From: Alphaproteobacteria bacterium
GTDB lineage: Bacteria > Pseudomonadota > Alphaproteobacteria > MPNO01 > UBA830
Assembly: GCA_965243135.1 (NCBI GenBank)
Contig: OZ251539.1
Span: 4,096,001-4,160,000 of the forward strand
Direction: 5' to 3'
Length of the DNA stretch: 64,000 nucleotides
Shown: piece after piece, positions 6,739 to 61,173 of the stretch
Layout of the letters: each line of letters begins with the position of its first letter
Numbering within the stretch: the stretch's first letter is position 1
The notes under the pieces: model-generated
Seen by the model: the letters and a program-made list of their open reading frames with translations, nothing else
The model's database searches: none
Told to the model about the DNA's origin: nothing
Position numbers and translations under genes: made by a program

Positions 6739-6864
6739 AACCGCGGGGCGCCGCGGCGGACCGACTTTCCGGTTCGTCTTCGCTCGAGGAATGCCGAAAC
6801 GCCTTTCGCGCCCGGAAACGGATCGAAACCCGATGGCGACGCGCGCCGCGCAGGCCGTCCGGCC

Positions 6865-19374: not shown

Positions 19375-19773
19375 TCAAATCGCCGCCACGGCGGAGATCT
19401 CGATCAGGAACTCCGGCCAGGCCAGCGCCGATACCTCGACGATGGCGGAAGCCGGACCGTTTTCGGGAAAGTAACTTTCGCGGATATCGGACACCGACTC
19501 GAACGCGCCGATGTCCCGCGCGTAGACCGTGACCTGCACGATGTCCCGCATGGCGCCGCCGTTCGCCTCGACGATAGCCTTGACGTTCTCCAGAACCTGG
19601 ATCGTCTGGGCGCGGATGTCGCCCTTGCCGACCAGATTGCCGCCGGCGTCGAGCGCCACCTGTCCGGCGACGAAGAGCAGCGGCCCCGCCTCCGCGCGGA
19701 CGCTGTTGGAATAATGCGGCTTGAGCGGCGGCGCAACGCCGGCCGGGTTCGCGCCTACGGATTTTCGCGTCAT
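19375..19773 (-). CDS. RidA/YjgF-family protein
   Basis: HYSNSV, LFVAGQV, PASAIVEV and LIEISAVA; ATGA overlap with the upstream gene. Confidence 0.87.
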   Translation of the reverse strand: MTRKSVGANPAGVAPPLKPHYSNSVRAEAGPLLFVAGQVALDAGGNLVGKGDIRAQTIQVLENVKAIVEANGGAMRDIVQVTVYARDIGAFESVSDIRESYFPENGPASAIVEVSALAWPEFLIEISAVAAI

Positions 19774-22658: not shown

Positions 22659-23186
22659 TCAGGCGGTCTCGCAATCGAAGCCGACGACGTTGCGCTCCTC
22701 GCGGCTGAACTCCACCCCGATCAGGTGGACCGAACGTCCGAGACGGCGGTACTTGTCCGCATAGCCCTTCTCCCGCAGCTGCGCGAGCGCGATCCCCTCC
22801 CGCCCGCGCTCCACCACCTTGAACTCGAACAGGTAGACGCGCCTGCCGGCGCGGATCGCCATGTCGGCGCGCCCCCGGCTGCCGCTGTCCTCGGCCACCG
22901 GCTCGAGGCCCTCCATCAGGAAGCAGCTGGACGCTCGCGTAGTGGGCCTCGTACACCGGGCTGTTCATGTACCACTGGTGCGGGATGGCGGCGAAAATGC
23001 CGCGGAACAGGGTTTCGAGACGTTTGAAGTCGTTCGCCTCCAGCAATTCGCCCAGCCGCAAGTTCTCCGTCTCCTCGCGGGCCTCGTCCGGGAGCAGTTC
23101 TTCCAGCAGGGCCTCGCCCAGGCTTTGGCGCACCTCGAGGTTCGGGTAGCCCAGCCGGTAGCGCCCGTCCTTCTCGCCGACGATGG
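22659..23186 (-). pseudogene. 3' exon of the AAA-ATPase-like/PD-(D/E)XK (PDDEXK_9) gene, frameshifted near 22929
   Basis: TIVGEKDGRYRLGYPNLEVRQSL...YEAHYASV, then a frame change to SCFLMEGL..AED..GRADM..YLFEFK..ALAQLREKGYADKY..LIGVEFS. Confidence 0.85.
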
Positions 23187-24047
23187 GTAGAGTCGAGGAC
23201 TGGCGCGTTAGCTTTAGGGTCCGGTGGATGTTCCGTCGCTTTCGCTCCGGGCCTCAGTCCGGCTCCCGTGGCCACGTTTCCAGTCCCCGCTCTCCGAACC
23301 GGACGTGCGGATTTCCCGCGCCTCCAGCAGGATCATGCGTCTCGCCCACGGATGGATTGTCAGCGTTCCCAAAAAACGGCCGGTTTTCCGGACCCGGGAG
23401 TTGCACCGTCTCCCATATTTTCCGCCTGTTCTCGCTTTCCAACCCGTCGCCGAGCCTGTTTACGCCTCGACGACCCCGGCCTCTCGACCGGGTTCCTTCG
23501 CTTCTGCATGTGACGCTTCCGGGATCTCTGGCATGTAGTCGGTTGTTAGGCATAGCCAATCTCCGAGCCCTTCTCCCTTGCGGCGCCCTTCCTCGCCTGA
23601 GGCCCCTTTCCTCCGCCGGCGTTACCCGGCTTCTCCGGTACTACGGGCCTCTCCGCCACCCTGCCGGCCCGGCCTGCCCCTCGCGGGGTTCCGGTTGACT
23701 CGTGCGCGTCACCGACAGGGCTTCCCGTGTTGCTGCTTCCTTCATCTTCCATGCGTGCCGACACCCCGGCGGAAACGGTCGGTGCTTTTGTCGTTCTCTT
23801 CCCGACCGTCGGCGGCTTTCCCCTAACCTCAGGAGGGTCAGCTTCCGCATTGACCGTTTCGAGGCCTGCTCAATGTTCACTACTCGTTTCGGCCCGCGTG
23901 TTCGCTGAGCGGCCTTCGCCGCCCTTTCCCAGAGTGCTTCAGCCTACATCGTTACCTCCGTAAACCGCCCTGGCCGCTACCAACCGGAACGACAGTTGTT
24001 GGGTGGGATTCGCACCCACCAGAAGAAAGCGCCTTTCCACGGCGCAC
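23187..24047 (-). mobile_element. Group II intron (IIB-like) lacking its RT/maturase ORF
   Basis: 5' GTGCG and 3' CTCGACTCTAC; D5-like GCGGGAAATCCGCACGTCCGGTTC; D6 stem GGGGACTGG/CCAGTCCTC; EBS1 TGAGGT complementary to the exon end ACCTCA; removal restores the host frame (GYL-T-IVGE). Confidence 0.93.
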
Positions 24048-25041
24048 TGAGGTAGCCGGTCTGGAACAGAAGCGCCTGGACCGACATCCTGTCCACGTCG
24101 AAGGTCGAGAGCAGGCTCTCGCTGCCGATCATGCCGTCCAGGCGGGGAGTGGGCAGGTTGCGGCGCGCCAGCGTCTCGATCAGGAAGGTCGGCGTGCCGC
24201 TCTCGAACCAGTACGGGTGGAACTCGCGCCGCCGAAACAGCAGCAGCAGGCCGAACGGGTTGTGGACCTTTTCCGATCCGAGCCAGTTGTAGCCGTCGTA
24301 CCAGCGGCGGACCTCGTCCCGGTCCAGGCCCTCGAGTTCAGGAGCGAAGACCGCGTCCAGCTCCGCATCCGTGTAGCCGCAGATGTCCGAGAACTCCGGC
24401 TCCAGCGTGATGTCGATCAGGTTGTTCAGGCCCGAGAACAGGCCCGATAACTTGCTCACTCCCGTCAGGAAAACGAAACGGAGCTGCCTGTCGCAGGCCT
24501 TGATCACCCCGTACAGGCTGCGCAGGAAGTCGCGGTTGGCCAGCGCCAGTTCCCGGTCGCCGAGCGCGTCCAGGACCGGCTTGTCGTATTCGTCCACCAG
24601 CACGACCACGCGCCGCCCGGTGCGCTCGTGCAAAGCCTCGATCAATTCCCAGAAACGAACCGACGCTTCGACGAGGCACGGTTCGAGGCCGGCGTGCCTC
24701 TCCGCCACCGCCAGCTGCCTTTCCACGGCGACGCGAACCCCGTCCGGGGCGCGGAAATCGCCCCCTCTGCTGAAATCCAGCCGCACGACAGGATGGCGCG
24801 CCGACCAGTCCCACCCGCCGTGCACGGCGAGGCCCCGGAACAACTCCTCGCTCCCCTCGAACAACTCCTGCAGCGTGTCCACCAGCAGGGTCTTGCCGAA
24901 CCGGCGCGGACGCGACAGGAAATAGTACTTGCCCCCTTCGACGAGGCGGCGCGCATGGTCCGTCTTGTCAACGTAGTAGCAGTCCATCCCCCGGATCTCC
25001 CGGAGGGAGGAAAAGCCGATCGGAAGCATGCGTCCTGCCAT
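24048..25041 (-). pseudogene. 5' exon of the AAA-ATPase-like (PF09820-type) gene
   Basis: LPIG, YYVDKT, Walker A SRPRRFGKTL, Walker B LVDEYDKP, TGVSK, YWFESGTP and LLFQTGYL. Confidence 0.9.
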
Positions 25042-25798
25042 TCGGCGAGAAGTAGGCCGCCGCGCCGGAACCGTCAAGAAGTCGGCGGCGGCAGGCCTGT
25101 CTGCGTCCCCTGGCGCGGCAAGCAGCCGGCAGTTTCCGCGACGCTACGGCTGGGAAAAGCGCGGGGGCGAGCGAACCTGTCGCTCCGCGGGAATCCTGCC
25201 CGCTCGCAGGAGGCGAGCGCGTTCGACGCGCTCAACGCGCGGCCAGGAGACATTCAGGCGGAAGCGAACGCCGACGGAAGGCTCCGTCACCAAAGGCGAC
25301 GCGCGTCGGCAACGATCTCGACACCGGCTTCGCGAGCCTCGACGGCAAGGTCGACGCCCTCGCCGCGGAAACCAGAGCCGACGCAACGCGACGGCAAGCG
25401 CCCTCGCCAAGGAAAGCCGCACGCCTCGAAACCAGGACGATTGTCGCGGCAGGCCTCGCCGCGCCTGTGTTGGTTCGGTACCGAAGATCCGCGCACGACG
25501 ACATGCGCCGCAAGCGGCGAAACGCTTGAACGTCAGGCAACGGTTCCGTCGAACAACGAGAGCGTCGTCCGGTCGAGCGAGCGGACTTCCGCCGTCGAAA
25601 ACCATGGCCCGTTCGAAGCCATCAACCGAAGCGGCTCGCGAAAGCGAAACCGGAAACGGCGATGGCAGGCGTTGGCCTCCGTTTTTGAACTCACCCGCCT
25701 GACCTCTCCGCAACATTAAAACGACCGGTCAGCCACCACGCATGTTGCGCTTCAAACATGAAGGGGCGTCCGGTACCAGGTCTTTCCCGCATTTGGTC

Positions 25799-28503: not shown

Positions 28504-29541
28504 TCAACCGTCCGCTACGGTCGCGTGGATCCGCAGAAGTTCGGGAATCGTCTCGGCCGGCCGCCGTCCGAAACCGCATTCCGTCGCGACGCCGAAGTTC
28601 GGGGCATGCCTTTCCGCGGCGGCGATGCGCCTGCGGGTGCCGGTCGCGCCGTCCGTGTAATGCACCAGCCCCAGATACAGTTCCGTTTCCGGGTTGAGAG
28701 CGAGATCCCGAAGCGGCGCGAAATAGGCGTCGTCGTCGCGGCTGCGGGGAACCGGCATGTGAATCCAGTGAACCGGACGGGGAGAGCCCGCGCAAATGCC
28801 GTTGGCGAACGCGACGCAGGTCGCGAAGTCCTCCGGCTCGACGATATGCTTGTGTCCGGGATCGCCGTAGCAAAGGTGTATCCCCGCCTCGGCGCCCTCG
28901 GAGACGAAGCCGAGTTGACGGCAAATGCGCTCCAGGGATCCTTCGAGTATGTCCTCGTAATGCAGCTTCCAGCGGCCTGACCCGCCGTCGCGAGCGATGA
29001 CTTCGTGGCAGACGTCCCATTGGATGGCCAGCCGGTCGGCCGGAACCGCGGCGGAAATCGCCTCGACGTCGCGCTTCAGTCCGCGCTCCACGGCGGGCTC
29101 GATCAGCGGCCGATGGCCGATCTCCATGAAGTTCGTGGACAACGCGACCGCCGTCGGAAGCGACACCTGAAACCGCGTCGCGGCCGGAATGGATCCTTCC
29201 GCCCGATGAACTTCGAACCGCTCGTAGGAAGCGATTGCAGCGCCGGCGTAGCCGAGCGTCTCGAATTCGATCTCCGTCACGCCGTCGGCCAGCCGAAACG
29301 GCGCGACCCCCAACTGGGCCTGGAAGCCGTCGACTCCTTCGTACTCGCCGACTCTGGCGAGCGACGGATGACGGTCGAACAGATCGAAGACCCACCGGAT
29401 CCAGTGGTAGCGCGGACCGGTCTCGCCGTCGGGATAGCGCCGCGCACGCGGGCCGATGGTTTCTCCCAACGCCTTGAAGACGGCGTCTTCGTTTTCGAGC
29501 CCGAGGCTCCCGGTAAAATGGATTTTCCCGTTCTGCGGCAT
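28504..29541 (-). CDS. Cobalamin-independent methionine synthase (MetE C-terminal/URO-D)-like Zn protein
   Basis: GSL, PDGETG, IQWDV, HLCYGD and ECGFGR. Confidence 0.72.
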   Translation of the reverse strand: MPQNGKIHFTGSLGLENEDAVFKALGETIGPRARRYPDGETGPRYHWIRWVFDLFDRHPSLARVGEYEGVDGFQAQLGVAPFRLADGVTEIEFETLGYAGAAIASYERFEVHRAEGSIPAATRFQVSLPTAVALSTNFMEIGHRPLIEPAVERGLKRDVEAISAAVPADRLAIQWDVCHEVIARDGGSGRWKLHYEDILEGSLERICRQLGFVSEGAEAGIHLCYGDPGHKHIVEPEDFATCVAFANGICAGSPRPVHWIHMPVPRSRDDDAYFAPLRDLALNPETELYLGLVHYTDGATGTRRRIAAAERHAPNFGVATECGFGRRPAETIPELLRIHATVADG

Positions 29542-32432: not shown

Positions 32433-33434
32433 ATGGCTATGAAACTATACGGAACCGTCGGCGCGCTGGTCGGCCTCGCGCTCGCGGGCGGCGCGGCGTC
32501 CGCCGCGGACATGAAAATCGGCTACGCGACGATCAACGATCCGCAGCACGCCATCGCGCTGGAAATCCAGAAGCGCTTCGCCGCCGCCAAGGACGCCGGC
32601 ATCGAGGTGCGCATCTTCCCCTCGGGCCAGATCGGCAAAATCCCGCGCATGATTGAAGGGTTGCAGTTCGGAACGCTCGAAGCCCTCATCTCGCCGCCCG
32701 GCTTCCTGGTCGGCATCAATCCGGCGTTCCAGGTTCCCGACGCGCCCGGCGTGTTCGCGGACGTCTTCCACGCGCACCGGACCCTCAACGATCCGGCCTT
32801 CTTCGGACCGTACTCGCAGCTCGCGTCCTCGCGCGGCATCAAGATGGCCTCGCTGTACGTGTACGGCCCCACCTCCTTCGCGAGCAAGGCGCCGCTCCGT
32901 TCGCTGGCGGACTTCAAGGGCAAGAAAATCAGGGTGCTCGCCACCAAGATGGAAAGCTCGCTCGTGGGCAAGTTCGGCGCGGCGGGCGTTCCGATACCGT
33001 ACACGGAAGTGCTGCCGGCCCTGCAGCGCGGCACCATCGACGCGGTGCGCAGCTCGATCATCGTCATGGGCGGATCGAAGTTCTTCACGGTCACCAAGTT
33101 CATAACCGTCGTCGAAAGCGGGCAAATCCCCAGCGTCGTGATGCTGAGCGACATCTGGCTCAAGAAGCTCTCCGCCGCGCAGCGCAAGTTCGTCGAGTCC
33201 ACGCTCGCCGGAATGAGCGAGGGGAACACCGGGATCGCCGCCGAGTACGGCAAGCGCGCCGAGCAGCTGTGGAAGGACAACGGCGCCGAAGTGATCCGCC
33301 TTTCGGCCGCCGAACAGAAGACCTTCATGGACACGGTGCGTCCACTGGGCGACGAATTTCTCGGCAAGCACCCGAACGCCAAGGTCCGGGAGATGTACGG
33401 GATCCTCAAGGATTCCGCCAAGCGCAACATGTAG
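32433..33434 (+). CDS. dctP: TRAP transporter substrate-binding protein (DctP family)
   Basis: Signal peptide, FPSGQIG, DFKGKKIRV and EVLPALQRGTID. Confidence 0.85.
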   Translation: MAMKLYGTVGALVGLALAGGAASAADMKIGYATINDPQHAIALEIQKRFAAAKDAGIEVRIFPSGQIGKIPRMIEGLQFGTLEALISPPGFLVGINPAFQVPDAPGVFADVFHAHRTLNDPAFFGPYSQLASSRGIKMASLYVYGPTSFASKAPLRSLADFKGKKIRVLATKMESSLVGKFGAAGVPIPYTEVLPALQRGTIDAVRSSIIVMGGSKFFTVTKFITVVESGQIPSVVMLSDIWLKKLSAAQRKFVESTLAGMSEGNTGIAAEYGKRAEQLWKDNGAEVIRLSAAEQKTFMDTVRPLGDEFLGKHPNAKVREMYGILKDSAKRNM

Positions 33435-33538
33435 GCGCGCGGGCGCCGGGGGCGGCGGCCCTCGGCGCCGGGCGGGGAAGCGGCGAAACCGGTCATGACG
33501 GGACGAAGCGCCGAGCGCGGCGGCCGGGCGAAGGCCGA

Positions 33539-35623
33539 GTGACCGGCGCGGCCCGGATTCCGCCGTGGCGCATCGGCGTCGACGTCGGCGGCACCTTCAC
33601 CGATCTCGTCGTCGCCGACGCGAACGGCCGGACGGACGTGTTCAAGGTTCCGTCCTTGCCCGTGGATCCGGGAGAAGGCGTAATCGCGGCGCTCGAGGCG
33701 GCGGTCGCCGCGTACGGCCTTTCCCTCGAGGGCCTGCTCGGCGATTGCCAGTTCTTCCTGCACGGGTCCACGGTCGCCACCAACACCTTGTTGGAGAGCA
33801 AGGGCGCGCGGGTCGGCCTCCTGACCACGAGGGGCTTTCGCGACAGCCTCGAAGCGCGCCGGGGCATGCGGAAGAATCCCTGGGACCACCGAACGCCCTA
33901 CCCGCCCGTTCTGGTGCCGCGCTATCTGCGCCGGCCGGTCGCCGGCCGCATCGACGCCGCCGGCAAGGAGGTCGAAGCGCTCGACCGCGAAGACGTCCGC
34001 GCCGCCTGCCGTGCGTTCCGCGACGAAGGGGTCGAATCCGTCGCCGTCTGCCTGCTCAACAGCTTCGTCAACCCCGCGCACGAACGGGCCGCGGCCGAAA
34101 TCCTGCGCGAGGAGAACCTGTGCGACGCGATATCCGTGTCCTCGGACATCGTGCCGATCATGGGCGAATACGAGCGCTGCTCGACGACGGTGGTGAACGC
34201 CTATGTCATGCCGCGCGTCGGCACCTACCTGCGGGCGCTGCAGAAGCGCCTGACCGGGATGGGACTCCGGACCAAGCTCCTGATGCTGCAGAGCAACGGC
34301 GGTGCCGCCTCCCTCGACCAGCTGCTGCAGCGGCCCGTGAACCTGCTGCTGTCCGGTCCTTCGGCCGGCGTCGGCGCCATGCGCCGCCTCGCGGCGCAAA
34401 TCGGCGAGGACAACCTGGTCAGCATGGAGATCGGCGGGACGAGCTGCGACGTGATGCTGATGCATCGGGGCGAGGTCGCGATCACCGACATGCTGTCCGT
34501 CGCCGACTACGATCTCGTAACCCCGTCGGTCGACATCCATACCGTCGGCGCCGGCGGCGGCACCATCGCGGGAGTGGATCCGGCGGGGCTCGTCTACGCC
34601 GGCCCCCAGGGCGCGGGCGCGAAGCCCGGCCCCGCGGCCTACGGCCTCGGCGGCGTCCGCCCGACCGTCACCGACGCCCATCTCGTGCTCGGCCGCCTGC
34701 GGCCCGGTCCCTACGCGGGCGGCTCCGTGACGCTCGATCTCGCGGCGGCCGAGGAGGCGATCGACAGGGAGATCGCGGAGCCGCTCGGGCTTTCCCGCGC
34801 GGACGCGGCCGCCGGCCTGATCCGCATCGTGGAGCAGAACCTGCTGCATGCCGTCGAACGGATCAGCATCCAGCGGGGCTACAACCCCGGACGGTTCATG
34901 CTGATCGCCTGCGGCGGCGCGGGTCCGATGCACGGCGCGACCATCGGCCGCCGACTCGGCGCGCGGGCGGTCTACGCGCCGCGGCAGTCCGGCGCGTTCT
35001 GCGCCATCGGCATGCAGCACGCCGACGTGCGGCGGGATTTCGTTCGGGTGCTGATGCGCCGGCTGGACGACGGCGCGTCCCGCGAGATACGCCAAGGGTA
35101 CGCCGACCTCGAAGCGCAGGCGCGGACGGCGCTGCGCGAGGAAGGCTTCGAGCCCGGCAGCATGGCGTTCGGCCGCGAGCTCGACCTGCATTACGAGGGG
35201 CAGCAATGGGACGTGCGGGTCGCCCTCGCCTCCGACGCCTCGCCGGACCGGATCCGCGAAGCCTTCGAAGCGGAGTACGATCGCCAGTTCGGACACACCA
35301 ATCCCGGCGGACGAATCAACGTGGCCAAACTGCGCATCGTCGGAACCGGCAGGCTGCCGCCGCTGGAGGATCCCGCGTTTCCGCGCGTCGACGCGCCGGC
35401 CGTTCCCGCCGGGAGCCGCATGGCGTACGCCGAAGCGGCCGGCGGCTTCGTCGAGACGCAGGTCTATCGCGGCGCCGATTTGCATCACGGACAGGGATTC
35501 CGGGGTCCCGCGATCGTCGAGGAAGAAACGACGACGGTCCTGGTCGGCCCCGGCGACAGGGTCGCGGTCGACGCGCTCGGAAATTACGTCATCGCCTTCG
35601 ACGGCGGAGAGCGGACGCCATGA
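33539..35623 (+). CDS. Hydantoinase A/5-oxoprolinase ATP-binding subunit
   Basis: GVDVGGTFTD, HGSTVATN, SGPSAG, EIGGTSCD and GAGGG. Confidence 0.92.
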   Translation: MTGAARIPPWRIGVDVGGTFTDLVVADANGRTDVFKVPSLPVDPGEGVIAALEAAVAAYGLSLEGLLGDCQFFLHGSTVATNTLLESKGARVGLLTTRGFRDSLEARRGMRKNPWDHRTPYPPVLVPRYLRRPVAGRIDAAGKEVEALDREDVRAACRAFRDEGVESVAVCLLNSFVNPAHERAAAEILREENLCDAISVSSDIVPIMGEYERCSTTVVNAYVMPRVGTYLRALQKRLTGMGLRTKLLMLQSNGGAASLDQLLQRPVNLLLSGPSAGVGAMRRLAAQIGEDNLVSMEIGGTSCDVMLMHRGEVAITDMLSVADYDLVTPSVDIHTVGAGGGTIAGVDPAGLVYAGPQGAGAKPGPAAYGLGGVRPTVTDAHLVLGRLRPGPYAGGSVTLDLAAAEEAIDREIAEPLGLSRADAAAGLIRIVEQNLLHAVERISIQRGYNPGRFMLIACGGAGPMHGATIGRRLGARAVYAPRQSGAFCAIGMQHADVRRDFVRVLMRRLDDGASREIRQGYADLEAQARTALREEGFEPGSMAFGRELDLHYEGQQWDVRVALASDASPDRIREAFEAEYDRQFGHTNPGGRINVAKLRIVGTGRLPPLEDPAFPRVDAPAVPAGSRMAYAEAAGGFVETQVYRGADLHHGQGFRGPAIVEEETTTVLVGPGDRVAVDALGNYVIAFDGGERTP

Positions 35624-37353
35624 CGGCCCTGGATCCCGTCCTTCTCGCGCTCACCCAGAACCGGCTGGACCACATCTCCCACCAGATGGGGTGGGTGATG
35701 GTGCGCACGGCGCGCAGCCCGATCTTCAGCCAGGCGCACGATTTTTCCTGCTTCATCGCCGGCCCGGGCGGCGAAGTGGTGAGCCAAGCCGACGGCATTC
35801 CCATCCACACCGGCAGCGGCGGCTTCGGGGTGCGGGCGATCCTGCGGGATTTCGAGGGCGACATCGCGGAAGGCGACGTATTCCTTCTCAACGACCCGTG
35901 GGCGGCCGGCGGCAACCACCTGCCCGACTGGGTGATCGCCCGCCCGGTCTTCGTCGACGGGACCATGGCCGGACTGACCTGCAACCGCGCGCACCAGTCG
36001 GACATCGGCGGCGGCGCGGCGGGCGCCTACAATCCCGGCGCCACCGAGGTGTTCGAGGAAGGAATTCGCCTGCCCGTCCTCAAACTGGCGGAAGCGGGGA
36101 AGATCCGCCGCGATCTCTGGAAGCTGCTGCTGCTCAACACGCGGACGCCGCATCTTCTGGACGGCGACCTGCGAGCCATGCTGGGATCGACCCGCATCGG
36201 CATGGAACGCGTGGCGGCGCTGGTCGAGGAACTCGGCGCGGACGAGGCCTTCCGGTATTTCGCGGGCGTTCTCGATCATGCCGACCGGTCGGTGCGGGCG
36301 GAGATTTCCAGGCTGCCCGACGGCGTCTACGAGGCCGAGGACCGCTCCGACAACGACTGCTTCGAGCTGCGCGACGTAACGGTGCGGGTCAGGCTGACGA
36401 TCGAGGGCGACCGGGCGACGGTCGACTTCGCGGGTTCGGATCCGCAGATAAGGGGATTCAAGAACTCGTCCCTGGGCAACACCTGCTCGGCCGTCTACAC
36501 CGCGCTGGCTTCGTTTCTCGATCCGGATCTGCCCCATAACGAAGGCGCGTTCCGTTGCGTCGACGTGGTCGCGCCGGAAGGCACGATCGTCAACGCCGCC
36601 GAGGGCGCGTCCACGACCATGTGCACGGTCTTCTTCGCGCACGAAATCATTCATGCCGTCTGGAAGGCGCTGGCGCAGGCCGACCCGCGGCGCGGCTGCG
36701 CCGGCTGGGCGAAGAACGTGTTCGGCCTGTCCGTCGGCCGCGAGGAAAGCGGCCTCCCTTACGTCTTCTACCACGGCGCGGCTTCGGCGGGCGCCGGCGC
36801 GGTGGAGGGCCGCGACGGCTTCAACCAGATCGGCCACGTCTGCACTTTGGGCGGATTGACGATGCCCAACGTGGAAGCCTACGAGCAGCTCTACCCCGTC
36901 CTTTTCCGCCGGCAGGAGTTCCGCGCCGACGCTGCGGGCGCAGGCGAGTGGCGCGGCGGCAGCGGCTGCGAGTACGAGGTCGACATCCGCACGCCCGCCA
37001 CCCACTCCTTCCGCGGCGAAGGGCTCGGCTACGAGACGGGGTACGGCATCAACGGCGGCCGCGGCGGCGCTCCGGGCGAGATGCATCTCGCGCATCCCGA
37101 CGGCGCGACGGAAGCCGCGCCGAAATACGGGCTGCTGGCCACCGGACCGGTGCGCTTCGTCACCAGTTCGCCGGGCGGCGGCGGATACGGCGACCCGCTG
37201 AAGCGCGATCCCGAGCGCGTGCTTCGCGACCGTCGCGACGAGATCATTTCGGAAGCCGCGATGCGCGAAGTGTACGGAGTCGCGGCCGCGCCCGACGGGC
37301 GGACGGTGGACGCGGCGGCCACGGCGGCGCTCCGCAAGCGGCTGGAACGCTGA
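35620..37353 (+). CDS. Hydantoinase B/5-oxoprolinase subunit
   Basis: ARSPIF..AHDFS, PIHTG, NDPW.GGNHLPD, AHQSDIGG and PGGGGYGDP. Confidence 0.92.
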   Translation: MTALDPVLLALTQNRLDHISHQMGWVMVRTARSPIFSQAHDFSCFIAGPGGEVVSQADGIPIHTGSGGFGVRAILRDFEGDIAEGDVFLLNDPWAAGGNHLPDWVIARPVFVDGTMAGLTCNRAHQSDIGGGAAGAYNPGATEVFEEGIRLPVLKLAEAGKIRRDLWKLLLLNTRTPHLLDGDLRAMLGSTRIGMERVAALVEELGADEAFRYFAGVLDHADRSVRAEISRLPDGVYEAEDRSDNDCFELRDVTVRVRLTIEGDRATVDFAGSDPQIRGFKNSSLGNTCSAVYTALASFLDPDLPHNEGAFRCVDVVAPEGTIVNAAEGASTTMCTVFFAHEIIHAVWKALAQADPRRGCAGWAKNVFGLSVGREESGLPYVFYHGAASAGAGAVEGRDGFNQIGHVCTLGGLTMPNVEAYEQLYPVLFRRQEFRADAAGAGEWRGGSGCEYEVDIRTPATHSFRGEGLGYETGYGINGGRGGAPGEMHLAHPDGATEAAPKYGLLATGPVRFVTSSPGGGGYGDPLKRDPERVLRDRRDEIISEAAMREVYGVAAAPDGRTVDAAATAALRKRLER

Positions 37354-37436
37354 AGGCGAACCGCCGACGGCGTCTTCACAAGCGTGACCGCAAGTAGCAT
37401 ACTGCCGCGGGCTTGCAGCGGCGAGGAGACGGAAAC

Positions 37437-38771
37437 ATGGCCGATCTGAGAACCGAATTCTGCGGCATTCCCTTCAAGAATCCGGTGTTGGTCGCCTCGC
37501 TCGAAACGACCAACAGTCCCGACCTCATGAAGCAGGCGTTCGACTACGGCGCGGGCGGGGCCATCATCAAGACGCTGACCGACATCGACGACATGGCCGT
37601 TCTGACCATGAACTCGAAGTACTGCATCATGAACGAGCGCGGCGACATCATAAAGGGCAAGGTGCCGCGCGACTTCAAGTTCTACAGCCGCTCCGGCTAT
37701 TCGAGCACCTACTACAAGGACTGGATTCCCTGCCTGAAGGAAGTGGGCGCCTACGCGCGGGAGCGCGACGCCCATCTGATCGGCAGCGCCGGCGCCAGGG
37801 ACGTCGACGGTTGGAAGGACATCTGCCGCACGTTCGAGGATTGCGGCGTCCCGCTCGTCGAGCTCAATTTCGGGTGCCCGCATCCGGCCATGATGCCGGG
37901 CGTCCACGGCGGCAGCATGATCGGCCAGTCGGCCGAGGTGGCGTTCGAAGTGACGCGCGCGGTCCGCGAAGCGGTGGACATCCCGATCATGGTGAAGCTG
38001 ACGCCGGACCAGACGCGGCCGGTGGAGATCGCGCGGGCCGTCAAGGAAGCGGGCGCGGCGGCGGTGACGGCCACCAACCGCTACACCGGCTTCGCCGTCG
38101 ACATCGAGACCGGACGCCCGCGGCTGGAAGGCCCCGCGGGCATCGGCGGCACCTGGACGAAGCCGCTCACCCTGCGTTACGTCCACAACATCTATCGCGA
38201 AGTCGGCATCCCCATCGCAGGTTCCAACGGCGTCTTCGATCACCGCGACGTGGTCGAGTTCCTGATGACCGGCGCGGACGTCGTGGAAGTCGGGTCGGTG
38301 CTGATGATCAAGGGCATGAAGTGGCTTCCCGGCATCGTGCGCGGCCTCGAGCGCTTCATGGACGAGCGCGGTTATCCCGACGTCGCCGCGATGCGCGGCA
38401 TCGCGACCGAATCGTCGGTGCAGGACTACGCCGGCCAGTTCGCGCAACCGCGAATCCACGCCGTCGTCGACCGGGAAACCTGCCAAAACCCGACCTGCAA
38501 CATCTGCGTGCAGATGTGCTTCTACGAAGCGCTGTCGCAGAACCCGGCCGGCCGCATCGACGTGCATCCCGACTCCTGCATCGGCTGCGAGCTCTGCCTC
38601 GACGTCTGCCCGTTCGACTCGATCTCCATGGAGCCGACCTCGGAAGCGCAGTTCGCTGAAGGGTATTTCGCGATTCCGGACGGCGTCTACGAAAAGCCCG
38701 GCAAGTTCGTCACGCAACGCAACAACATGGAAACCATAACCCGGGACGGCCCGAGGCTGGCGGCGGAATAG
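37437..38771 (+). CDS. PreA-like dihydropyrimidine/dihydroorotate dehydrogenase-family FMN enzyme with a C-terminal 2x[4Fe-4S] domain
   Basis: ELNFGCPH, VKLTP, ATN, CxxxxCxxCxxxC and CIGCELCLDVCP. Confidence 0.82.
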   Translation: MADLRTEFCGIPFKNPVLVASLETTNSPDLMKQAFDYGAGGAIIKTLTDIDDMAVLTMNSKYCIMNERGDIIKGKVPRDFKFYSRSGYSSTYYKDWIPCLKEVGAYARERDAHLIGSAGARDVDGWKDICRTFEDCGVPLVELNFGCPHPAMMPGVHGGSMIGQSAEVAFEVTRAVREAVDIPIMVKLTPDQTRPVEIARAVKEAGAAAVTATNRYTGFAVDIETGRPRLEGPAGIGGTWTKPLTLRYVHNIYREVGIPIAGSNGVFDHRDVVEFLMTGADVVEVGSVLMIKGMKWLPGIVRGLERFMDERGYPDVAAMRGIATESSVQDYAGQFAQPRIHAVVDRETCQNPTCNICVQMCFYEALSQNPAGRIDVHPDSCIGCELCLDVCPFDSISMEPTSEAQFAEGYFAIPDGVYEKPGKFVTQRNNMETITRDGPRLAAE

Positions 38772-38826
38772 CGCCCGCCGGCCGGATCCGGCGGAAAGGC
38801 GCGAACGGGAGACCGCGGAGCGACGC

Positions 38827-39516
38827 ATGGCGAAATCGGAATTCAGGCTGGAACTCGAGGCCGCGGTGAACGAACGCCACTGCGCCGACCATCCGATGTG
38901 GGACAAGCTCGCCGCCGGCGAACTCGGCCGCCGCGCGTGCATGGGTTGGGCCGTGGAGCACTATCACTGGATCTCCACGATGCTGCGCGAAGCGACGTTC
39001 GGCATCTGCGCCAAGGCGCCCGGCGACGTGATCGAGGTCGAGCTGGAGAACTTCCGCGAGGAAGAAGATCCGGACGAGCCCCACATGGAGATCGTCCTGA
39101 AATTCGCGAAGGCGAACGGAGCGGATCTCGACGAGGTCAGAAGCGGCGAGGGCCTGCCGACCACCCGCTCGTGGTCGGCGTGGCTCAGGCATGTCGCCAG
39201 GGAGGAGCCGTGGTATTGCGGCGTGGCCGCGATCCGCATCGGCACCGAGTCCCAGTCGCCCCGGCTGTACAGCAAGGTTCTGCCGTCCCTGCGCGAGAAC
39301 TACCGGTACGACGAAGAGGACATCAAGCATTTCTGGCTGCATTCCGAGGTCGACATCGAACATGGCGACCGCGGATTCGAGGTTCTCGAACGCCATTGCT
39401 CGACCCGCGAGATGAAGGAGGCGGCGATCCGCTTCGCCCGCGAAAGCGCTCGCATGCGCTGGTTTTATTTCGACGGAATTCACCTGCACTACGAACTGGG
39501 CTACGCGCTTCGCTAG
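38827..39516 (+). CDS. Heme-oxygenase-like diiron oxidase (CADD/PqqC/TenA fold)
   Basis: ENFREEE...H, TESQ and HSEVDIEH (HxxxDxxH) metal-ligand pattern. Confidence 0.8.
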   Translation: MAKSEFRLELEAAVNERHCADHPMWDKLAAGELGRRACMGWAVEHYHWISTMLREATFGICAKAPGDVIEVELENFREEEDPDEPHMEIVLKFAKANGADLDEVRSGEGLPTTRSWSAWLRHVAREEPWYCGVAAIRIGTESQSPRLYSKVLPSLRENYRYDEEDIKHFWLHSEVDIEHGDRGFEVLERHCSTREMKEAAIRFARESARMRWFYFDGIHLHYELGYALR

Positions 39517-39547
39517 CCTCCCGGAAACAAGGAAAGGAAACCGGATC

Positions 39548-40411
39548 ATGCGTTTTGTCGCATTCAAAAAGAACAGGGAAGCCCGGCTGGGCGTCAGGAC
39601 GGATGCCGGGGTTGTCGATCTCTCCGCCGTCGACGAGTCCCTGCCCACCGACCTGAAACAGTTACTCGCCATGGGCAAGGGAGCCATGCAGCGCGCCGGG
39701 CGGGCGGCCCGGAAAGCGCCGGAAGAGGCTATCGTCAAGGGCCGGATCAGCCATCTGCCGCCGATCCAGGAGCCGCAAAAGATGATCTGCGTCGGGCTCA
39801 ACTACAAGGACCATGCGGCGGAGGCGGGTCTGAAGCCGCCGACCTACCCTGTCCTGTTCGTCCGTTTCCCGACCTCCATGGTCGGCCACGGCCAGCCGCT
39901 GATCGCGCCCAAGGCGTCCCGGCGGTTCGACTACGAGGCCGAGCTCGTCGCCGTGATCGGAAGCAAGGCGCGCAACGTCAAGAAATCCGAAGCGCTGAAC
40001 CACGTCGCAGGGTATTCGATCTTCAACGAGGGGTCGATTCGCGATTATCAGATGAAGGCCAGCCAGTGGACGGTAGGCAAGAACTTCGACGCGACGGGAT
40101 CCTTCGGTCCGGAATTCGTGACCGCGGACGAACTGCCGACCGGCGGAAAGGGCCTCGGCATCCAGTGCCGGGTCAACGGCAAGGTGCTGCAGGACTCCAA
40201 CACGAAGGAAATGATCTTCGACGTGAAGACGCTGGTCTACGAGGCGGCGCGCGCGTTCACCCTTCTGCCCGGCGACATCATCATTACCGGAACGCCCGCG
40301 GGCGTCGGGTTCGTCCGCAAGCCGCCCATCTTCCTCAAGGAGGGCGATACCTGCGAGATCGAGGTCGAGAAGATCGGCATCCTCTCCAACCCGGTCAAGA
40401 AGGAGAAGTAG
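39548..40411 (+). CDS. Fumarylacetoacetate hydrolase family protein
   Basis: CVGLNYKDH, DYEAEL, GKNFD and TGTPAGVG. Confidence 0.93.
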   Translation: MRFVAFKKNREARLGVRTDAGVVDLSAVDESLPTDLKQLLAMGKGAMQRAGRAARKAPEEAIVKGRISHLPPIQEPQKMICVGLNYKDHAAEAGLKPPTYPVLFVRFPTSMVGHGQPLIAPKASRRFDYEAELVAVIGSKARNVKKSEALNHVAGYSIFNEGSIRDYQMKASQWTVGKNFDATGSFGPEFVTADELPTGGKGLGIQCRVNGKVLQDSNTKEMIFDVKTLVYEAARAFTLLPGDIIITGTPAGVGFVRKPPIFLKEGDTCEIEVEKIGILSNPVKKEK

Positions 40412-40519
40412 CGCCCGAAACGGTTTCCGGACTCCGCTGTTCGCGACGCGAGAGTTCGGAAACCGTGGACGTATTTTTGAAGCCATCGCCGGGGAAGAAG
40501 TTCGGAAGCGCTTGGCCGA

Positions 40520-40660
40520 TGGCGGGGCGGCATTGGGCGTTTCGGAGCGCGCCTTCCGGCGCTGGCGCGACGGAGGGAGCGGAAAGGTTATACGACCATG
40601 GGCTGTCGGCTTGCCTGCCCCGAAACGCGTCGACGAAACTGCTTGGGTTCCGCCCCGGAG
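40520..40660 (+). pseudogene. Degraded transposase HTH fragment (ISNCY/IS481-like)
   Basis: AALGVSERAFRRWRD followed in another frame by EGAERLYD. Confidence 0.55.
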
Positions 40661-40911
40661 CGCAGCGCGCCCCGAACGTTCCCGCCGCTTACGAACGGAC
40701 GGTTGGAAAACCTGCCGTCCCGTCTGACGTGGTGGGTGGCGGCAGGTTGGGATTTGTCAGCGTCACGTTCCCACCGCATATGCTGTCCTGCGCGTAGCCG
40801 TCCAGCACCGTCCCATTCGCACGGTCGCCTTCACGGCGTTCCGGTCGCCAACGGCCATGCTTCCCCGACGGCGGTCCTGAACGGCGTCGCCGGCCGCGGG
40901 TCTCATGCTTG

Positions 40912-41200
40912 CTATGCTTCGAGCGGGCCCCGTTTGAATTCGATGCGGCTTCGACGGTCCAAATCTACAACCACAATATTCGCTGACGAACCGTCCAGGC
41001 TCTTCTCGTATCCCCGCAACAGATCCGGTAACCGGTTCGGAACGATCCTTTCCGCCGGATTTGCCCTGCAAATCTTTCGATACGCTTCCCAAATTCTTGT
41101 AACCGTGCGTCTTCCATCCATGGTGCGTGCGCCAAGAAGTTTCCCGAGAAGGATGTCAACCGCGATGCGCCCCGCCCTCGACCAATGCTTCGAATTGCAT
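40912..41200 (-). pseudogene. Frameshifted, truncated DUF4276-like partner of the ATPase
   Basis: MQFEALVE / DILLGK / RIVPNRLPDLLRGYEKSL / VVVDLD spread across frames. Confidence 0.6.
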
Positions 41201-41211
41201 CGCGCCGCCCC

Positions 41212-42501
41212 TCAATCCAGATAGTCGCTGTACCAGAGGCCGCCAAGCGGCAATCCTTCCTTTACCATAGCCCTGACGATTTTGTCGTCGCTCGCCCTTC
41301 GAATGCGGGAAAAACCGTCGCCTTTCTTCTCCAGAATCCAAGTTTCGTCAGGTCCAAGCGCGTCGACGAAATGCGGCTGGTGCGTCGTGACGAAAATCTG
41401 CGGCGCGTTCCTCCGCCCGGTCGCATGGCCGCGAAACTCGTCAGCCAAAATTTTCAGGAGCTTGTGATACAGCCCGCTCCCCGGTTCTTCCACGCAAATG
41501 AATGGCGGGGGATCCGGATCCTCCAGCATGAGCAGATAGGCAAGCACCTTCAGCGTGCCGTCGGACATCTGTTGCGCATAGAAAGGATCTTCGAAACTCT
41601 TGTCGTTGAAGCGCAAAAGCAACCGGCCATCGGGGCTACGCTCGGTATCGATCTTGTCGATACCCGGGACTCTTTCCGCGATCCGATTCAGAATCCTCCC
41701 GAATCCGCCTCGATGTTCACGTTCCATGAATTGCACAACGTTTCCGAGATTGTCGCCGTGGATGCTCAGGCGTCTCTGGGGGCCAACCATAGGCAGGCTG
41801 CGGGCCGCGTCCGGCGTGAAGCAACTCAAGTACCACCCTTCGACAAACTGGCGAAAAGATGCAATCCTGGGATGCTGCTTCAAAGCACCGAGCGTCGCAA
41901 TGCTGAGTCTGCTATTGTTCTGAAGTTCAACGCGCTCCGTTTTCTCGCTTTCTCCTCCCTTAGATCCCTCCGAGACTCGGTCCATCAACTTCACCAAGTC
42001 GAATCCAGTTTCTTCGTCTCCATCGATCCGCTGACCTTGCGCATCTCCTTTCCAAGCTATGCCTTTGCCTGCAATCATTATGAGGAACCATAAGGGCTGA
42101 CCGAGCTTTGGCCCTCTTTGCTGTTGTCCTAGGAGCTCATGCGAAACGTAAGGGCGCCCCGTATCGTCCTTGTCGATCGAGAGTACGTAGGTGAAGGGCC
42201 GCGTACGCGCTTGCTGTCGATAATGGATCTCGAACTTAATCGGTTTGTCGCTACCTTGGGAACGGATACTGTCGAATCCGCCCCGCCCCCGCACGTCGCA
42301 TGCTTCCTCCACCCCCAGCTTCAGGCAATCCGCCAGAAATCCGAAGGCGTCGAACAGGGCAGTCTTGCCAACGCCGTTCTTGCCGATCACAGCGGTCATT
42401 GGAGTCAACGAGGCAACATTCCGCATTTTCCACAGCTTGCCAAGCGCGACGTTCTTCAGCACCCGGTAGTTGACGATCCTGATTCCTTCGATCTTCGCCA
42501 C
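41212..42501 (-). CDS. AAA_21/AbiEii-like ABC-type ATPase (defence-associated)
   Basis: GKNGVGKT, MSDGTLK, VEEPGSGL, TTHQP and C-terminal LGGLWYS; lower GC than its flanks. Confidence 0.88.
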   Translation of the reverse strand: MAKIEGIRIVNYRVLKNVALGKLWKMRNVASLTPMTAVIGKNGVGKTALFDAFGFLADCLKLGVEEACDVRGRGGFDSIRSQGSDKPIKFEIHYRQQARTRPFTYVLSIDKDDTGRPYVSHELLGQQQRGPKLGQPLWFLIMIAGKGIAWKGDAQGQRIDGDEETGFDLVKLMDRVSEGSKGGESEKTERVELQNNSRLSIATLGALKQHPRIASFRQFVEGWYLSCFTPDAARSLPMVGPQRRLSIHGDNLGNVVQFMEREHRGGFGRILNRIAERVPGIDKIDTERSPDGRLLLRFNDKSFEDPFYAQQMSDGTLKVLAYLLMLEDPDPPPFICVEEPGSGLYHKLLKILADEFRGHATGRRNAPQIFVTTHQPHFVDALGPDETWILEKKGDGFSRIRRASDDKIVRAMVKEGLPLGGLWYSDYLD

Positions 42502-42559
42502 AGCAATGTTTCCTCTCTATCTCGGCGCCGCCAGCAACATGGCGCGGAGCAGGCCGCCC

Positions 42560-43139
42560 AGCGGTTTCAGCGGGAACGCCGCGTTCCCGGCGCATTCCCT
42601 GACGAATCGCGCGATGGTTTCGGGCGCGAGGCTCAGTTCCTGCGCCCACGCCCGGCCCTCGACAAGCGTCTCCAGATCGAGCTTTCGGGAAGCACGCCCT
42701 CAAGGACATTACGGTAAATGTCTCGAAACCAGCCTTCGTCCGCATCCTTCAGAAGCCGGTCCTCAAGATCGCCGTCGCCGGCCCGCACGCGCAATAGTCC
42801 CGAAGCACCCGTTCCACTGAGCACGGGGAATTTCTCACTGACGCGGCAGCTGATCCACGCGCGATATCGAAAGCCCGAAACAGGGATCGAACTCGTGGGC
42901 AATGCCCAGCGACCAAGCTTGCAGGCCGAGGCGCAAGAGCAGGCCGTCACCGTGACAGGAAAGGGCGGAGTCCGCGACAGCAACTTCAGCCAAATCGTCC
43001 GCCGTTAGCGCAACTCTGCCAAACTGCTCGGAGAGCGTGCCGACCAGGACCAAGCGTCAGTGCCGCATGCACGCATCGTTTCGTTGAACTGCGGCCCTGT
43101 CAGAACCTGTCCTTCGTCCAAGGACGCATCAACGCTCAA
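42560..43139 (-). pseudogene. Internally deleted SNF2-type helicase relic (DUF3883/DrmD-like)
   Basis: EGQVLTGPQFNETMR / LVGTLSEQF / LLRLGLQAWSLGIAHEFDPCFGLSISRVDQLPRQ* / LEDRLLKD..RNVLEG / APETIARF; the helicase core is missing. Confidence 0.65.
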
Positions 43140-43390
43140 CAATGACTCCCTGTGCGGCTCACGGTTGACGGTAAAATAGCATATGATCGCCAGTCCGACG
43201 AAGACAATCCCCGGCAGAGGCGTTTGCGCTGCGCCATTTTTCGTCGGCTCGGCGCCCGGCCGGCCCCCCTCGGGTCGCTCCGGACGGCCGCCGATAAGTC
43301 CGCAAGGGCCGCGCAGACGGCCAGATACGAGAACGAAAAGCGAATATCTGGTTGCCGCGGCAACGCGGCGCAAACGCTCCCCGACAAGGG

Positions 43391-60271: not shown

Positions 60272-60879
60272 GCTTGCGGCAGGGCGACGCCGACCATGCA
60301 ATCCCGCGTCACGATGCCGGCGAGCCGTTCCTCGGACCAGCCTTCGGTGCCTTCGGGACGCCGCGGCAGGACGAGGTAGCGCATGTCGGCGTTGGAATCG
60401 TGCACGCGCACGGCGACATCGTCCGGAATTTCCGTACCGAACTCCTTCAGCACGGCCCGAGGCTCGATCACCGCGCGGCTGCGGTAGCTCTTCGACTTGT
60501 ACCAGTCCGGCGGCAGGCCGAGTATCGTGCGGGGGTAACAGGAGCACAACGTGCAGACGATCACGTTGTGCACGTCGGGCGCGTTCTCGACGACGACCAG
60601 TTCCGCGTCGCCCATCGCGAACCCCAATTCCTCCACCGCTTTCGTTCCGTTTTCCAGAAGCCGCTTTCTGAACTCCCGGTCGACCCAGGCGCGAGCCACG
60701 ATGCGGGCGCCGTCGGCGGGGTCGCGGCTGTCGAGAAACTCAAGGTTGCGGCGGACGTCTTCGGCGTCGACGACTCCCTTCTCGACCAGCAGTTCCTTCA
60801 TGGCCTCCGCCATCAATTCGTAATGGCCCGTCTCGTCGACGTCCGGCGTCGTGCCGGCGTGCGCGCCGTGATCGTGCAT
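60268..60879 (-). CDS. nthA: Co-type nitrile hydratase alpha / thiocyanate hydrolase gamma-like subunit
   Basis: Metal motif VCTLCSCY and LGLPPDWYKS..YRSRAV.EPR. Confidence 0.9.
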   Translation of the reverse strand: MHDHGAHAGTTPDVDETGHYELMAEAMKELLVEKGVVDAEDVRRNLEFLDSRDPADGARIVARAWVDREFRKRLLENGTKAVEELGFAMGDAELVVVENAPDVHNVIVCTLCSCYPRTILGLPPDWYKSKSYRSRAVIEPRAVLKEFGTEIPDDVAVRVHDSNADMRYLVLPRRPEGTEGWSEERLAGIVTRDCMVGVALPQA

Positions 60880-60883
60880 TTTC

Positions 60884-61171: not shown

Positions 61172-61173
61172 CG

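Follow-up and report, generated by a model that had tools for sequence, protein, structure and literature searches.

We analysed a 64,000-nucleotide window of an alphaproteobacterial genome (Alphaproteobacteria bacterium, contig OZ251539.1, positions 4,096,001 to 4,160,000) and focused on six genes at positions 32433-40411 of this window. They encode a solute-binding protein of the tripartite ATP-independent periplasmic (TRAP) type (DctP), the two subunits of a hydantoinase/oxoprolinase-type enzyme (HyuA and HyuB), a PreA-like reductase (PreAl), a heme-oxygenase-like diiron oxidase/oxygenase (HDO) and an enzyme of the fumarylacetoacetate hydrolase (FAH) family. On the basis of domain content and gene neighbourhoods, we lean with moderate confidence towards reading the locus as a catabolic operon for a carboxylated alpha,beta-unsaturated lactam or N-heterocycle, of the 2-pyridone or pyrimidone type or another unsaturated lactam. 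Its chemistry would be analogous to that of the reductive nicotinate pathway but would use different enzymes. Breakdown of an N-heteroaromatic acid via a lactam is suggested because an ene or ring reductase and an amide-bond hydrolase recur together, often beside a molybdenum (Mo) hydroxylase and a RidA-type deaminase. The conserved core of the locus is HyuA-HyuB-PreAl...FAH, and HDO is an accessory gene of the cluster.

Organization of the cluster

All six open reading frames (ORFs) lie on the + strand, are intact and contain zero internal stops (Table 1). The intergenic distances from DctP to FAH are, in order, 104, -4, 83, 55 and 31 bp, the start of HyuB overlapping the stop of HyuA by 4 bp. 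Terminator-like sites inside the cluster were at or below chance (4 observed against 7.0 expected), and the promoter-like sites scanned across the cluster occurred at chance level only. With no gap longer than 104 bp (the shortest being -4 bp) and no excess of terminator-like sites over chance, the packing of the six genes is operon-like. The G+C content is 64-72% over the cluster and 56-59% immediately downstream. This arrangement is the most compact form of the cluster, without the MarR, luciferase-like monooxygenase (LLM), MetE-like or TAXI-TRAP insert. The original prediction, made from the letters of the window, had described six co-oriented, closely spaced and intact genes, in agreement with these gene calls, and all six of its family assignments hold, the Pfam, NCBIfam and PDB sequence matches being far above chance. 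None of the six proteins reaches the curated NCBIfam cut-off of a characterised enzyme. A fused HyuAB protein within a 1262-residue ORF (33565-37353) was rejected, as only the last 577 residues of this ORF are coding (HyuB) and HyuA lies in another frame.

Predicted functions of the core and accessory enzymes

PreAl matches the Pfam domain DHO_dh (109 bits) together with Fer4_21, and PreA and pig dihydropyrimidine dehydrogenase (DPD) are its best-scoring characterised relatives. It scores 220 bits against the NCBIfam PreA model, below the equivalog cut-off of 335, and aligns with pig DPD (1gt8; E 2e-35) over both the flavin mononucleotide (FMN) domain and the Fe-S domain. The catalytic-cysteine motif is kept (NFGCPH in PreAl, NLSCPH in DPD, with the equivalent of C671 present), as are eight Fe-S cysteines. 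Three positions of pig DPD that we take to be pyrimidine contacts are changed: S670 is a glycine, T737 an invariant arginine, and the N609 loop an invariant FYSRSGYS. Because these substrate-contact positions are replaced while the catalytic-cysteine motif is kept, the comparison points to a related reaction, with a substrate that differs and is probably carboxylated. PreAl shares the FMN barrel, the catalytic-cysteine motif and the two C-terminal [4Fe-4S] clusters with PreT/PreA-type DPD and class 1B dihydroorotate dehydrogenase (DHODH), but is set apart from PreT/PreA by its lower score, by the replaced contact positions and by the lack of a PreT partner nearby. Indeed, no PreT (GltD-like) partner was found among the annotated genes of the cluster or the window, the remaining genome not having been searched. 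A 7Fe ferredoxin, an FNR and a 2-oxoacid:ferredoxin oxidoreductase among the neighbours of PreAl orthologs point to ferredoxin as the electron donor. Only three further cysteines are invariant, which makes a [2Fe-2S] site in PreAl unlikely. PreAl is present as a single copy in the source genome (G000), where the next best match is 31% identical, and an even sample of 400 genomes across the phylum yielded no ortholog at E <= 1e-120. Members of the family carry the database names tRNA-dihydrouridine synthase, dihydroorotate dehydrogenase or PreA.

By sequence, HyuA and HyuB are nearest to lactam hydrolases rather than carboxylases. Caprolactamase, 5-oxoprolinase and N-methylhydantoinase are ATP-dependent hydrolases; HyuAB shares their two-subunit architecture, and they are the nearest solved and curated relatives of the two proteins. 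HyuA aligns with the caprolactamase structure 6yra_A (E 2e-135) and with the N-methylhydantoinase 7hk5 (E 2e-125) far better than with acetone carboxylase (E 1e-76), and HyuB aligns with 6yra_B (E 5e-91). A role of HyuAB as a ketone carboxylase is less likely, since acetone/acetophenone carboxylase scores lie much below the lactamase scores. HyuB matches the full Hydantoinase_B profile (PF02538, positions 1-519) with 501 bits and a HyuA ortholog (L013:16621-18696) bears Hydant_A_N, Hydantoinase_A and Hydant_A_C, so that the HyuA-type and HyuB-type domains of the hydantoinase/oxoprolinase superfamily are found on neighbouring genes. Compared with the caprolactamase equivalogs CapA and CapB (NF050156/NF050157, cut-off 1000 bits each), HyuA reaches about half (574 bits, alpha subunit) and HyuB about a third (362 bits) of the cut-off. 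In the part of the literature source available to us, the caprolactam pathway is aminotransferase-based (PMC6061476), whereas here the gene context consists of a ring reductase, HDO and FAH; the available part of the caprolactamase paper (PMC8453981) contains nothing relevant on dihydropyrimidine, dihydroorotate or phylogenetic relations. HyuB orthologs of 81-87% identity occur in 27 relatives.

In a variant of reductive pyrimidine catabolism, acting on uracil, thymine or orotate, PreAl would take the part of a dihydropyrimidine or orotate reductase, and the ring would be opened by HyuAB, then an ATP-dependent dihydropyrimidinase or hydantoinase. Such a variant would suit the top characterised relatives of PreAl, the N-methylhydantoinase among the relatives of HyuAB and a weak RutC match of RidA. 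Among solved binding proteins, DctP is closest in sequence to 4nn3, presumably an orotate-bound entry. We nevertheless consider a pyrimidine pathway very improbable: PreAl falls below the PreA cut-off, its presumed pyrimidine-contact positions are occupied by other invariant residues, neither a PreT/GltD-like partner nor a carbamoyl-amino-acid amidohydrolase was found in the cluster, and FAH and HDO would have no role in pyrimidine breakdown.

FAH belongs to its superfamily by a wide margin (PF01557, 229.6 bits against a cut-off of 23.9). Its best NCBIfam match, 2,4-didehydro-3-deoxy-L-rhamnonate hydrolase, gives 195.4 bits (cut-off 500), and the HpaG decarboxylase equivalog gives 171.8 bits (cut-off 276.4). 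Among solved structures, the OPET decarboxylase 6iym and the L-2,4-diketo-3-deoxyrhamnonate hydrolase 8gsr match with E ~3e-46. FAH thus has the same domain and size class as the hydrolases and decarboxylases of this superfamily (L-2,4-diketo-3-deoxyrhamnonate hydrolase, HpaG and fumarylpyruvate hydrolase; E ~1e-46). Unlike in known FAH-family systems, no sugar-acid or homoprotocatechuate genes lie nearby.

HDO matches PF14518 with 69.4 bits (cut-off 28.9) and is far below the cut-offs of both CADD (TIGR04305, 75.9 bits against 200) and PqqC (TIGR02111, 42.7 bits against 240). Its best solved relatives are 9pj4 (E 2e-17), 1rcw (4e-9) and the PqqC structure 5vrc (6e-7). E78/E79, H86, E141, H172, D176 and H179 are invariant across 15 orthologs and align with E81, H88, E142, H174, D178 and H181 of 1rcw, which we take to be the metal ligands of CADD, and also with the metal-site positions of 9pj4. 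HDO therefore resembles CADD and PqqC in its helical fold family and in keeping all six diiron ligand positions, but its context is catabolic and not that of folate or pyrroloquinoline quinone (PQQ) synthesis. Tyr27 and Lys152 presumably have functional roles in CADD, the former as a sacrificial residue; the aligned positions of HDO are W25 (T in most orthologs) and V151. As the metal-ligand positions are kept and both of these residues are replaced, HDO is predicted to be a diiron HDO and not a CADD-type 4-aminobenzoate synthase. A search of the ESM Atlas with HDO returned only generically named TenA/PqqC/iron-redox clusters.

Conservation within and beyond the family

We searched 40 relatives, 24 of the same family (f1) and 16 from four other families of the order. 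Orthologs of HyuB (81-87% identity), PreAl (77-86%) and FAH (72-83%) are all held by 22 of the 24 f1 genomes, and the two genomes without them are assemblies with a completeness of 60% and 70%. In 21 of the 22, HyuB and PreAl are direct neighbours, and in the other (G015) they lie on different small contigs; PreAl and FAH stand on one contig, at most 5 kb apart, in 19 of the 22, and are split across contigs in G010, G013 and G024. This linkage spans six genera of the family. Among eight f1 loci examined, seven carry all five genes HyuA, HyuB, PreAl, HDO and FAH. The exception (L027, G018:C8) retains only residues 1-174 of PreAl together with a separate 357-residue ORF (5815-6888) that has the Fe-S domain only; HyuAB, HDO and FAH are intact in this genome (assembly 86% complete) despite the disrupted-looking PreAl.

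The interval between PreAl and HDO/FAH is variable among relatives and may hold a divergent MarR gene, an LLM gene and a MetE-like protein, and in the same-genus genome G002 a TAXI-TRAP transporter is inserted inside the cluster, which fits an organic-anion substrate. FAH remains beside PreAl-MarR in genomes where HDO and LLM are absent (G006, G011, G015, G016 and G017). HDO orthologs occur in 12 of the 24 f1 genomes and always lie directly upstream of FAH. Such accessories in the relatives (HDO, LLM, MetE-like, MarR, TRAP) probably broaden the range of substrates or change it. Among marine metagenome loci that span 4 kb or more and have an HDO at least 81% identical, all 12 show the order LLM-HDO-FAH and 10 have PreAl upstream, with HyuAB present wherever the contig extends far enough. 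More distant metagenome relatives of HDO (60-70% identity) adjoin Mo-hydroxylases (L141, L151, L152, L163), amidases (L170, L176), HyuAB-like genes (L169) or FAH (L131, L151, L152); among 27 such loci of at least 4 kb, 17 have no neighbour recognised by the query panel.

The pairing of a reductase with an amide hydrolase recurs independently outside the family. In 6 of 9 loci of Burkholderiales (L033-L041), distant HyuA/HyuB (30-38%) come after the PreAl ortholog (62-64% identity), together with DctP and a three-subunit Mo-hydroxylase. Elsewhere (L030, L031 and partly L037, L043), PreAl orthologs lie beside Cupin_7, an AS-family amidase, DUF2848 and a 7Fe ferredoxin, with FNR, an electron-transfer flavoprotein (ETF) or a 2-oxoacid:ferredoxin oxidoreductase; CN-hydrolase is also found among the neighbours. 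In a Desulfobacter metagenome-assembled genome (L042), PreAl lies beside GntR, BCCT, MttB and Mo-hydroxylase genes. In the sister family f2, HyuAB (HyuA 76%, HyuB 81-84%) stands beside two OYE ene-reductases and a TauD-family dioxygenase, with TRAP genes in G039, and HDO lies in an HDO2-RidA-HDO arrangement beside a three-subunit Mo-hydroxylase.

Two further occurrences were noted. The source genome holds an Amidase-Cupin_7-DUF2848 group divergent from a major facilitator superfamily (MFS) gene (C1:995970-999847, L189), 3.1 Mb from its only PreAl. Near-identical DNA for 32433-40411 (48-78% of sampled words) was found in four sponge metagenome runs of one study, and three runs labelled 'organism A' contain the whole interval; no RNA run was among the listed runs with near-identical DNA.

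DctP, RidA and the Mo-hydroxylase

DctP matches PF03480 with 155 bits and the NCBIfam model TRAP_S1 with 139 bits (cut-off 50). Its AlphaFold2 model has a pLDDT of 90, with residues 1-21 (the signal peptide) disordered, and in structure comparison some 50 TRAP binding proteins score equally well (Z 32-34.5), so that ligands are not discriminated and no substrate is deduced for DctP. Orthologs of 69-80% identity were found in 12 relatives. In all eight loci examined (L192-L199), the DctP ortholog has a RidA ortholog (76-81%) as its divergent neighbour, and HyuA lies within ~6 kb of DctP in six of the eight (G006, G007, G008, G016, G019, G022) and also in the metagenome locus L112, the DctP orthologs upstream of HyuA in these seven cases being 72-82% identical. 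Between DctP and HyuA, these relatives carry MarR and a VanA-like Rieske oxygenase, in many cases joined by a monooxygenase that passes the PobA equivalog cut-off (631 bits against 539). We read MarR-VanA-PobA as a separate aromatic-acid module. A novel protocatechuate route made up of VanA-PobA-HyuAB-PreAl was rejected, as the genomes with VanA-PobA also carry LigB-type and intradiol dioxygenase genes.

Upstream in the window, 12.7 kb from DctP, lies a RidA gene whose product matches Ribonuc_L-PSP with 102 bits and scores below the cut-offs of both NCBIfam Rid (88.5 bits) and RutC (78.8 bits). The adjoining Mo-hydroxylase large subunit is below all NCBIfam equivalog cut-offs; it is closest to CoxL (8uem, E 3e-164) and quinoline 2-oxidoreductase (1t3q, E 2e-134) and more distant from the nicotinate dehydrogenase of Eubacterium barkeri (E 4e-35). 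It is 82% identical to the gene in the MoCoL-RidA|DctP arrangement of G002 and 70% identical to the large subunit beside HDO2-RidA-HDO in family f2. On their far side, RidA and the Mo-hydroxylase are flanked by the same histidine kinase and response regulator as in G002. Because RidA adjoins DctP in relatives and the Mo-hydroxylase occurs with RidA-DctP in G002, the six-gene cluster is better regarded as the right-hand portion of a looser system, to which the RidA and Mo-hydroxylase genes probably also belong.

Table 1 Coordinates of the cluster genes and of the RidA and Mo-hydroxylase genes in the window
Feature	Position	Strand	Remark
DctP-type TRAP solute-binding protein, 333 aa, N-terminal signal peptide	32433-33434	+	Pfam PF03480
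HyuA, hydantoinase/oxoprolinase A-type ATP-binding subunit	33539-35623	+	GTG start; homology from 33569 at latest
HyuB, hydantoinase B/oxoprolinase-type catalytic subunit	35620-37353	+	Pfam PF02538
PreAl, PreA/DHODH-like FMN barrel + C-terminal 2x[4Fe-4S] domain	37437-38771	+	DHO_dh, Fer4_21
HDO, heme-oxygenase-like diiron oxidase/oxygenase	38827-39516	+	PF14518 (Haem_oxygenas_2)
FAH-family enzyme, 287 aa, predicted C-C hydrolase or decarboxylase (1,3-dicarbonyl/beta-oxo acid)	39548-40411	+	PF01557
RidA/RutC-like enamine/imine deaminase	19375-19773	-	Pfam Ribonuc_L-PSP
Mo-binding large subunit, xanthine-dehydrogenase/CO-dehydrogenase-family hydroxylase	19770-22175	-	Ald_Xan_dh_C, MoCoBD_1, MoCoBD_2

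The ~10-kb stretch before DctP contains a split AAA-ATPase-like/PDDEXK_9 gene, an unassigned ORF, a glutathione S-transferase (GST), a MetE-like Zn-motif protein and an MscS channel. The AAA-ATPase_like ORF (23977-25077) and a short PDDEXK_9 ORF (22659-22916, - strand) look like one split gene. A PDDEXK_9 gene (L207:10020-10985) also lies inside the cluster of G004, between MarR-PreAl and FAH, at the place taken by LLM/HDO in other genomes; it may be a mobile gene that marks rearrangement points. A 345-residue protein (28504-29541, - strand) has no Pfam or NCBIfam match and carries HxC...E...C motifs that resemble MetE-type Zn sites. The one homolog observed (34.5% identity) belongs to an operon of another family (L022) with the order HDO-Cupin_7-unknown-homolog-alanine:sodium symporter, a possible further link to the HDO network.

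One operon or separate modules

Several observations weigh against a single catabolic operon. In all five genomes of the sister family f2, the four orthologs are present (HyuB 81-84%, PreAl 78-80%, HDO 70-75%, FAH 62-67%) but dispersed: only G029 has HyuB and PreAl side by side, in G036 they are separated by 4.6 kb, and neither HDO nor FAH ever accompanies them. As a cluster, the genes are thus conserved within one family only, and even there HDO is missing from 10 of the 22 core-bearing genomes. The f2 ortholog of FAH (62-67%) lies in a Cupin_2-VOC-Aldolase_II-FAH operon, and the source genome carries the Cupin_2-VOC-Aldolase_II trio without its FAH (4931842-4935821), so that the window FAH may serve another pathway. 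No DctQ or DctM gene lies within the 64-kb window, which therefore holds no full TRAP transporter; of 48 DctM matches in the genome, the nearest are ~80 kb and ~140 kb outside it. In two genomes of the same genus, DctP adjoins RidA and stands away from, or without, the HyuAB cluster (G002, G004), the distance being 205 kb in G002. Because a VanA-like Rieske gene and a bona fide PobA gene stand between DctP and HyuA in relatives, DctP could serve aromatic-acid uptake instead. Finally, no small or medium subunit genes are adjacent to the Mo-hydroxylase gene.

These observations could mean that two or three modules are only locally juxtaposed: DctP (acting with RidA and the Mo-hydroxylase, or in aromatic-acid uptake), HyuAB-PreAl for a lactam, and HDO-FAH for oxidative cleavage in a pathway encoded elsewhere. 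The differing distributions (FAH in 38 of 41 genomes, HyuB in 30, PreAl in 28 and HDO, at 58% identity or more, in 22) would agree with this, as would the divergent MarR between PreAl and LLM-HDO-FAH in other genera. Yet the window genes are separated by 31-104 bp without an intervening regulator or a convincing terminator, the linkage of PreAl and FAH holds across six genera, and FAH keeps its place beside PreAl-MarR where HDO and LLM are missing. We therefore regard mere juxtaposition as improbable and retain the reading as a catabolic operon.

In this light, the six genes of the original prediction do not form a fixed unit: the core holds, whereas HDO is confined to half of the family genomes. 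Conservation of the cluster in other genomes, which it had named as a check, was borne out within f1 but is lost outside this one family. FAH is indeed linked in 19 of 22 genomes, although its sister-family ortholog belongs to a different operon. The inclusion of DctP is backed by orthologs upstream of HyuA in some relatives, but its constant neighbour is RidA and the window offers no DctQM. The six genes do lie at 32433-40411, while RidA and the Mo-hydroxylase (19375-22175), which are probably of the same system, fall outside this interval.

Proposed pathway and relation to known systems

In the catabolic operon as we envisage it, DctP would bind the anionic substrate for import through a DctQM pair encoded elsewhere; alternatively, the Mo-hydroxylase encoded 10 kb upstream could hydroxylate the carbon beside the ring nitrogen intracellularly to give the lactam. 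PreAl would then pass electrons, probably from ferredoxin, via its two [4Fe-4S] clusters to FMN and reduce a C=C bond of the ring, the conserved active-site cysteine acting as the proton donor. The resulting non-aromatic lactam would be hydrolysed by HyuAB at the cost of ATP, and the open-chain enamine or amino acid would lose its nitrogen via a RidA-type deaminase, or oxidatively via HDO where this is present. FAH would finally cleave or decarboxylate a 1,3-dicarbonyl or beta-oxo acid to yield central metabolites. HyuAB, PreAl and FAH would form the essential core of this scheme. Its weakest part is the role of HDO, which might deaminate oxidatively, hydroxylate, or supply FAH through oxidative cleavage. 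The order of ring reduction, ATP-dependent opening and C-C cleavage had been put forward in the original prediction; its logic is backed by the gene contexts elsewhere, while the substrate class is only inferred.

A more specific version would be a variant of the aerobic reductive nicotinate pathway with nicotinate or 6-hydroxynicotinate as the substrate. The Mo-hydroxylase would produce 6-hydroxynicotinate, PreAl would reduce it to 1,4,5,6-tetrahydro-6-oxonicotinate, and HyuAB would open the ring in place of enamidase; RidA would release ammonia to give 2-formylglutarate, which FAH would decarboxylate to glutarate semialdehyde. In Azorhizobium, decarboxylation reportedly follows ring opening, as Kitts is said to have described in 1992. 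HyuAB, PreAl and FAH plus RidA would be chemically sufficient for this route, which fits the genomes without HDO (G006, L193), and 6iym, the best solved relative of FAH, decarboxylates a vinylogous beta-oxo acid. In Burkholderiales and Desulfobacter, PreAl has Mo-hydroxylases in its neighbourhood, and the MttB-type methyltransferase and BCCT carrier of the latter would suit N-methylnicotinate. In the accessible parts of two papers, the reductive route leads from 6-hydroxynicotinate via tetrahydro-6-oxonicotinate to ring hydrolysis and NH3 release (PMC3511419, PMC9304392), and the step order proposed here matches this pathway of E. barkeri and Azorhizobium caulinodans. The logic shared with reductive nicotinate catabolism, as those parts present it for E. 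barkeri and for the cluster of A. caulinodans and Bradyrhizobiaceae, comprises a Mo-hydroxylase that yields a 2-pyridone, ring reduction by an Fe-S flavoprotein, hydrolytic opening with ammonia release and then C-C chemistry on the open-chain acid.

The enzymes themselves would differ. Ring opening here would be catalysed by the putative ATP-dependent HyuAB and there by a metal-dependent enamidase, and no enamidase-type amidohydrolase was found in the cluster. The reductase here is of the DHODH/PreA type; the one of E. barkeri is said to contain a [2Fe-2S] cluster and a covalent flavin, a cluster for which PreAl is unlikely to have a site. HDO and FAH fall outside the described pathway, the role of HDO would be left unexplained, no nicotinate-specific marker was found, and the E. 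barkeri nicotinate dehydrogenase is a more distant relative of the Mo subunit than CoxL and quinoline oxidoreductase are. We thus judge nicotinate or 6-hydroxynicotinate an unlikely substrate and return to the less specific reading of a carboxylated unsaturated lactam or N-heterocycle.

Consistent with the original prediction, our literature search found no described pathway that combines these enzyme families. It also found no paper joining hydantoinase, heme oxygenase-like and fumarylacetoacetate hydrolase proteins even pairwise, no paper naming DUF2848, no link between the E. barkeri nicotinate reductase and dihydropyrimidine dehydrogenase, and no catabolic N-heterocycle role of heme-oxygenase-like diiron enzymes; for hydantoinase/oxoprolinase with pyridone, nicotinate or lactam, only work on caprolactamase and valerolactam was found. 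The homarine operon homABCDER was considered and set aside, as it uses an FAD protein, a peptidase and an aldehyde dehydrogenase according to the part of the paper available (PMC13236597).

Only tentatively do we suggest that the locus might represent an undescribed aerobic reductive pathway for a pyridone- or pyrimidone-type N-heterocyclic acid in marine and host-associated Alphaproteobacteria, with three enzyme types new to this job. These would be a rare ferredoxin-linked DHODH/PreA-like ring reductase, an ATP-driven HyuAB lactamase replacing metal amidohydrolases, and, in about half of the genomes, an HDO working in catabolism instead of natural-product or cofactor biosynthesis. If true, this would give a first function to the rare, highly conserved and now mis-annotated PreAl family, extend ATP-dependent lactam hydrolases to heterocycle catabolism and reveal a catabolic role for a heme-oxygenase-like diiron enzyme. 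Since close relatives of the cluster turn up on several contigs from marine metagenomes, the substrate may be a relevant dissolved organic nitrogen compound, and HyuAB-type lactamases and lactam ene-reductases are of practical interest for biocatalysis. The value of the finding is limited until the substrate is found.

Other observations in the window

Between FAH and htpG, a low-G+C insert (56-59%) occupies positions 40500-43350; in the same-genus genome G003, the two genes are 3.8 kb apart. A 429-residue AAA ATPase (41212-42501, - strand) matches the PADLOC candidate defence proteins HEC-01A (578 bits) and HEC-01B (302 bits), and no second component was recognised. Further along the window, genes for a nitrile hydratase alpha subunit and a split beta subunit (60268-61497 and 61748-63235, - strand) adjoin those of a UbiD-family decarboxylase and a SnoaL-like protein.

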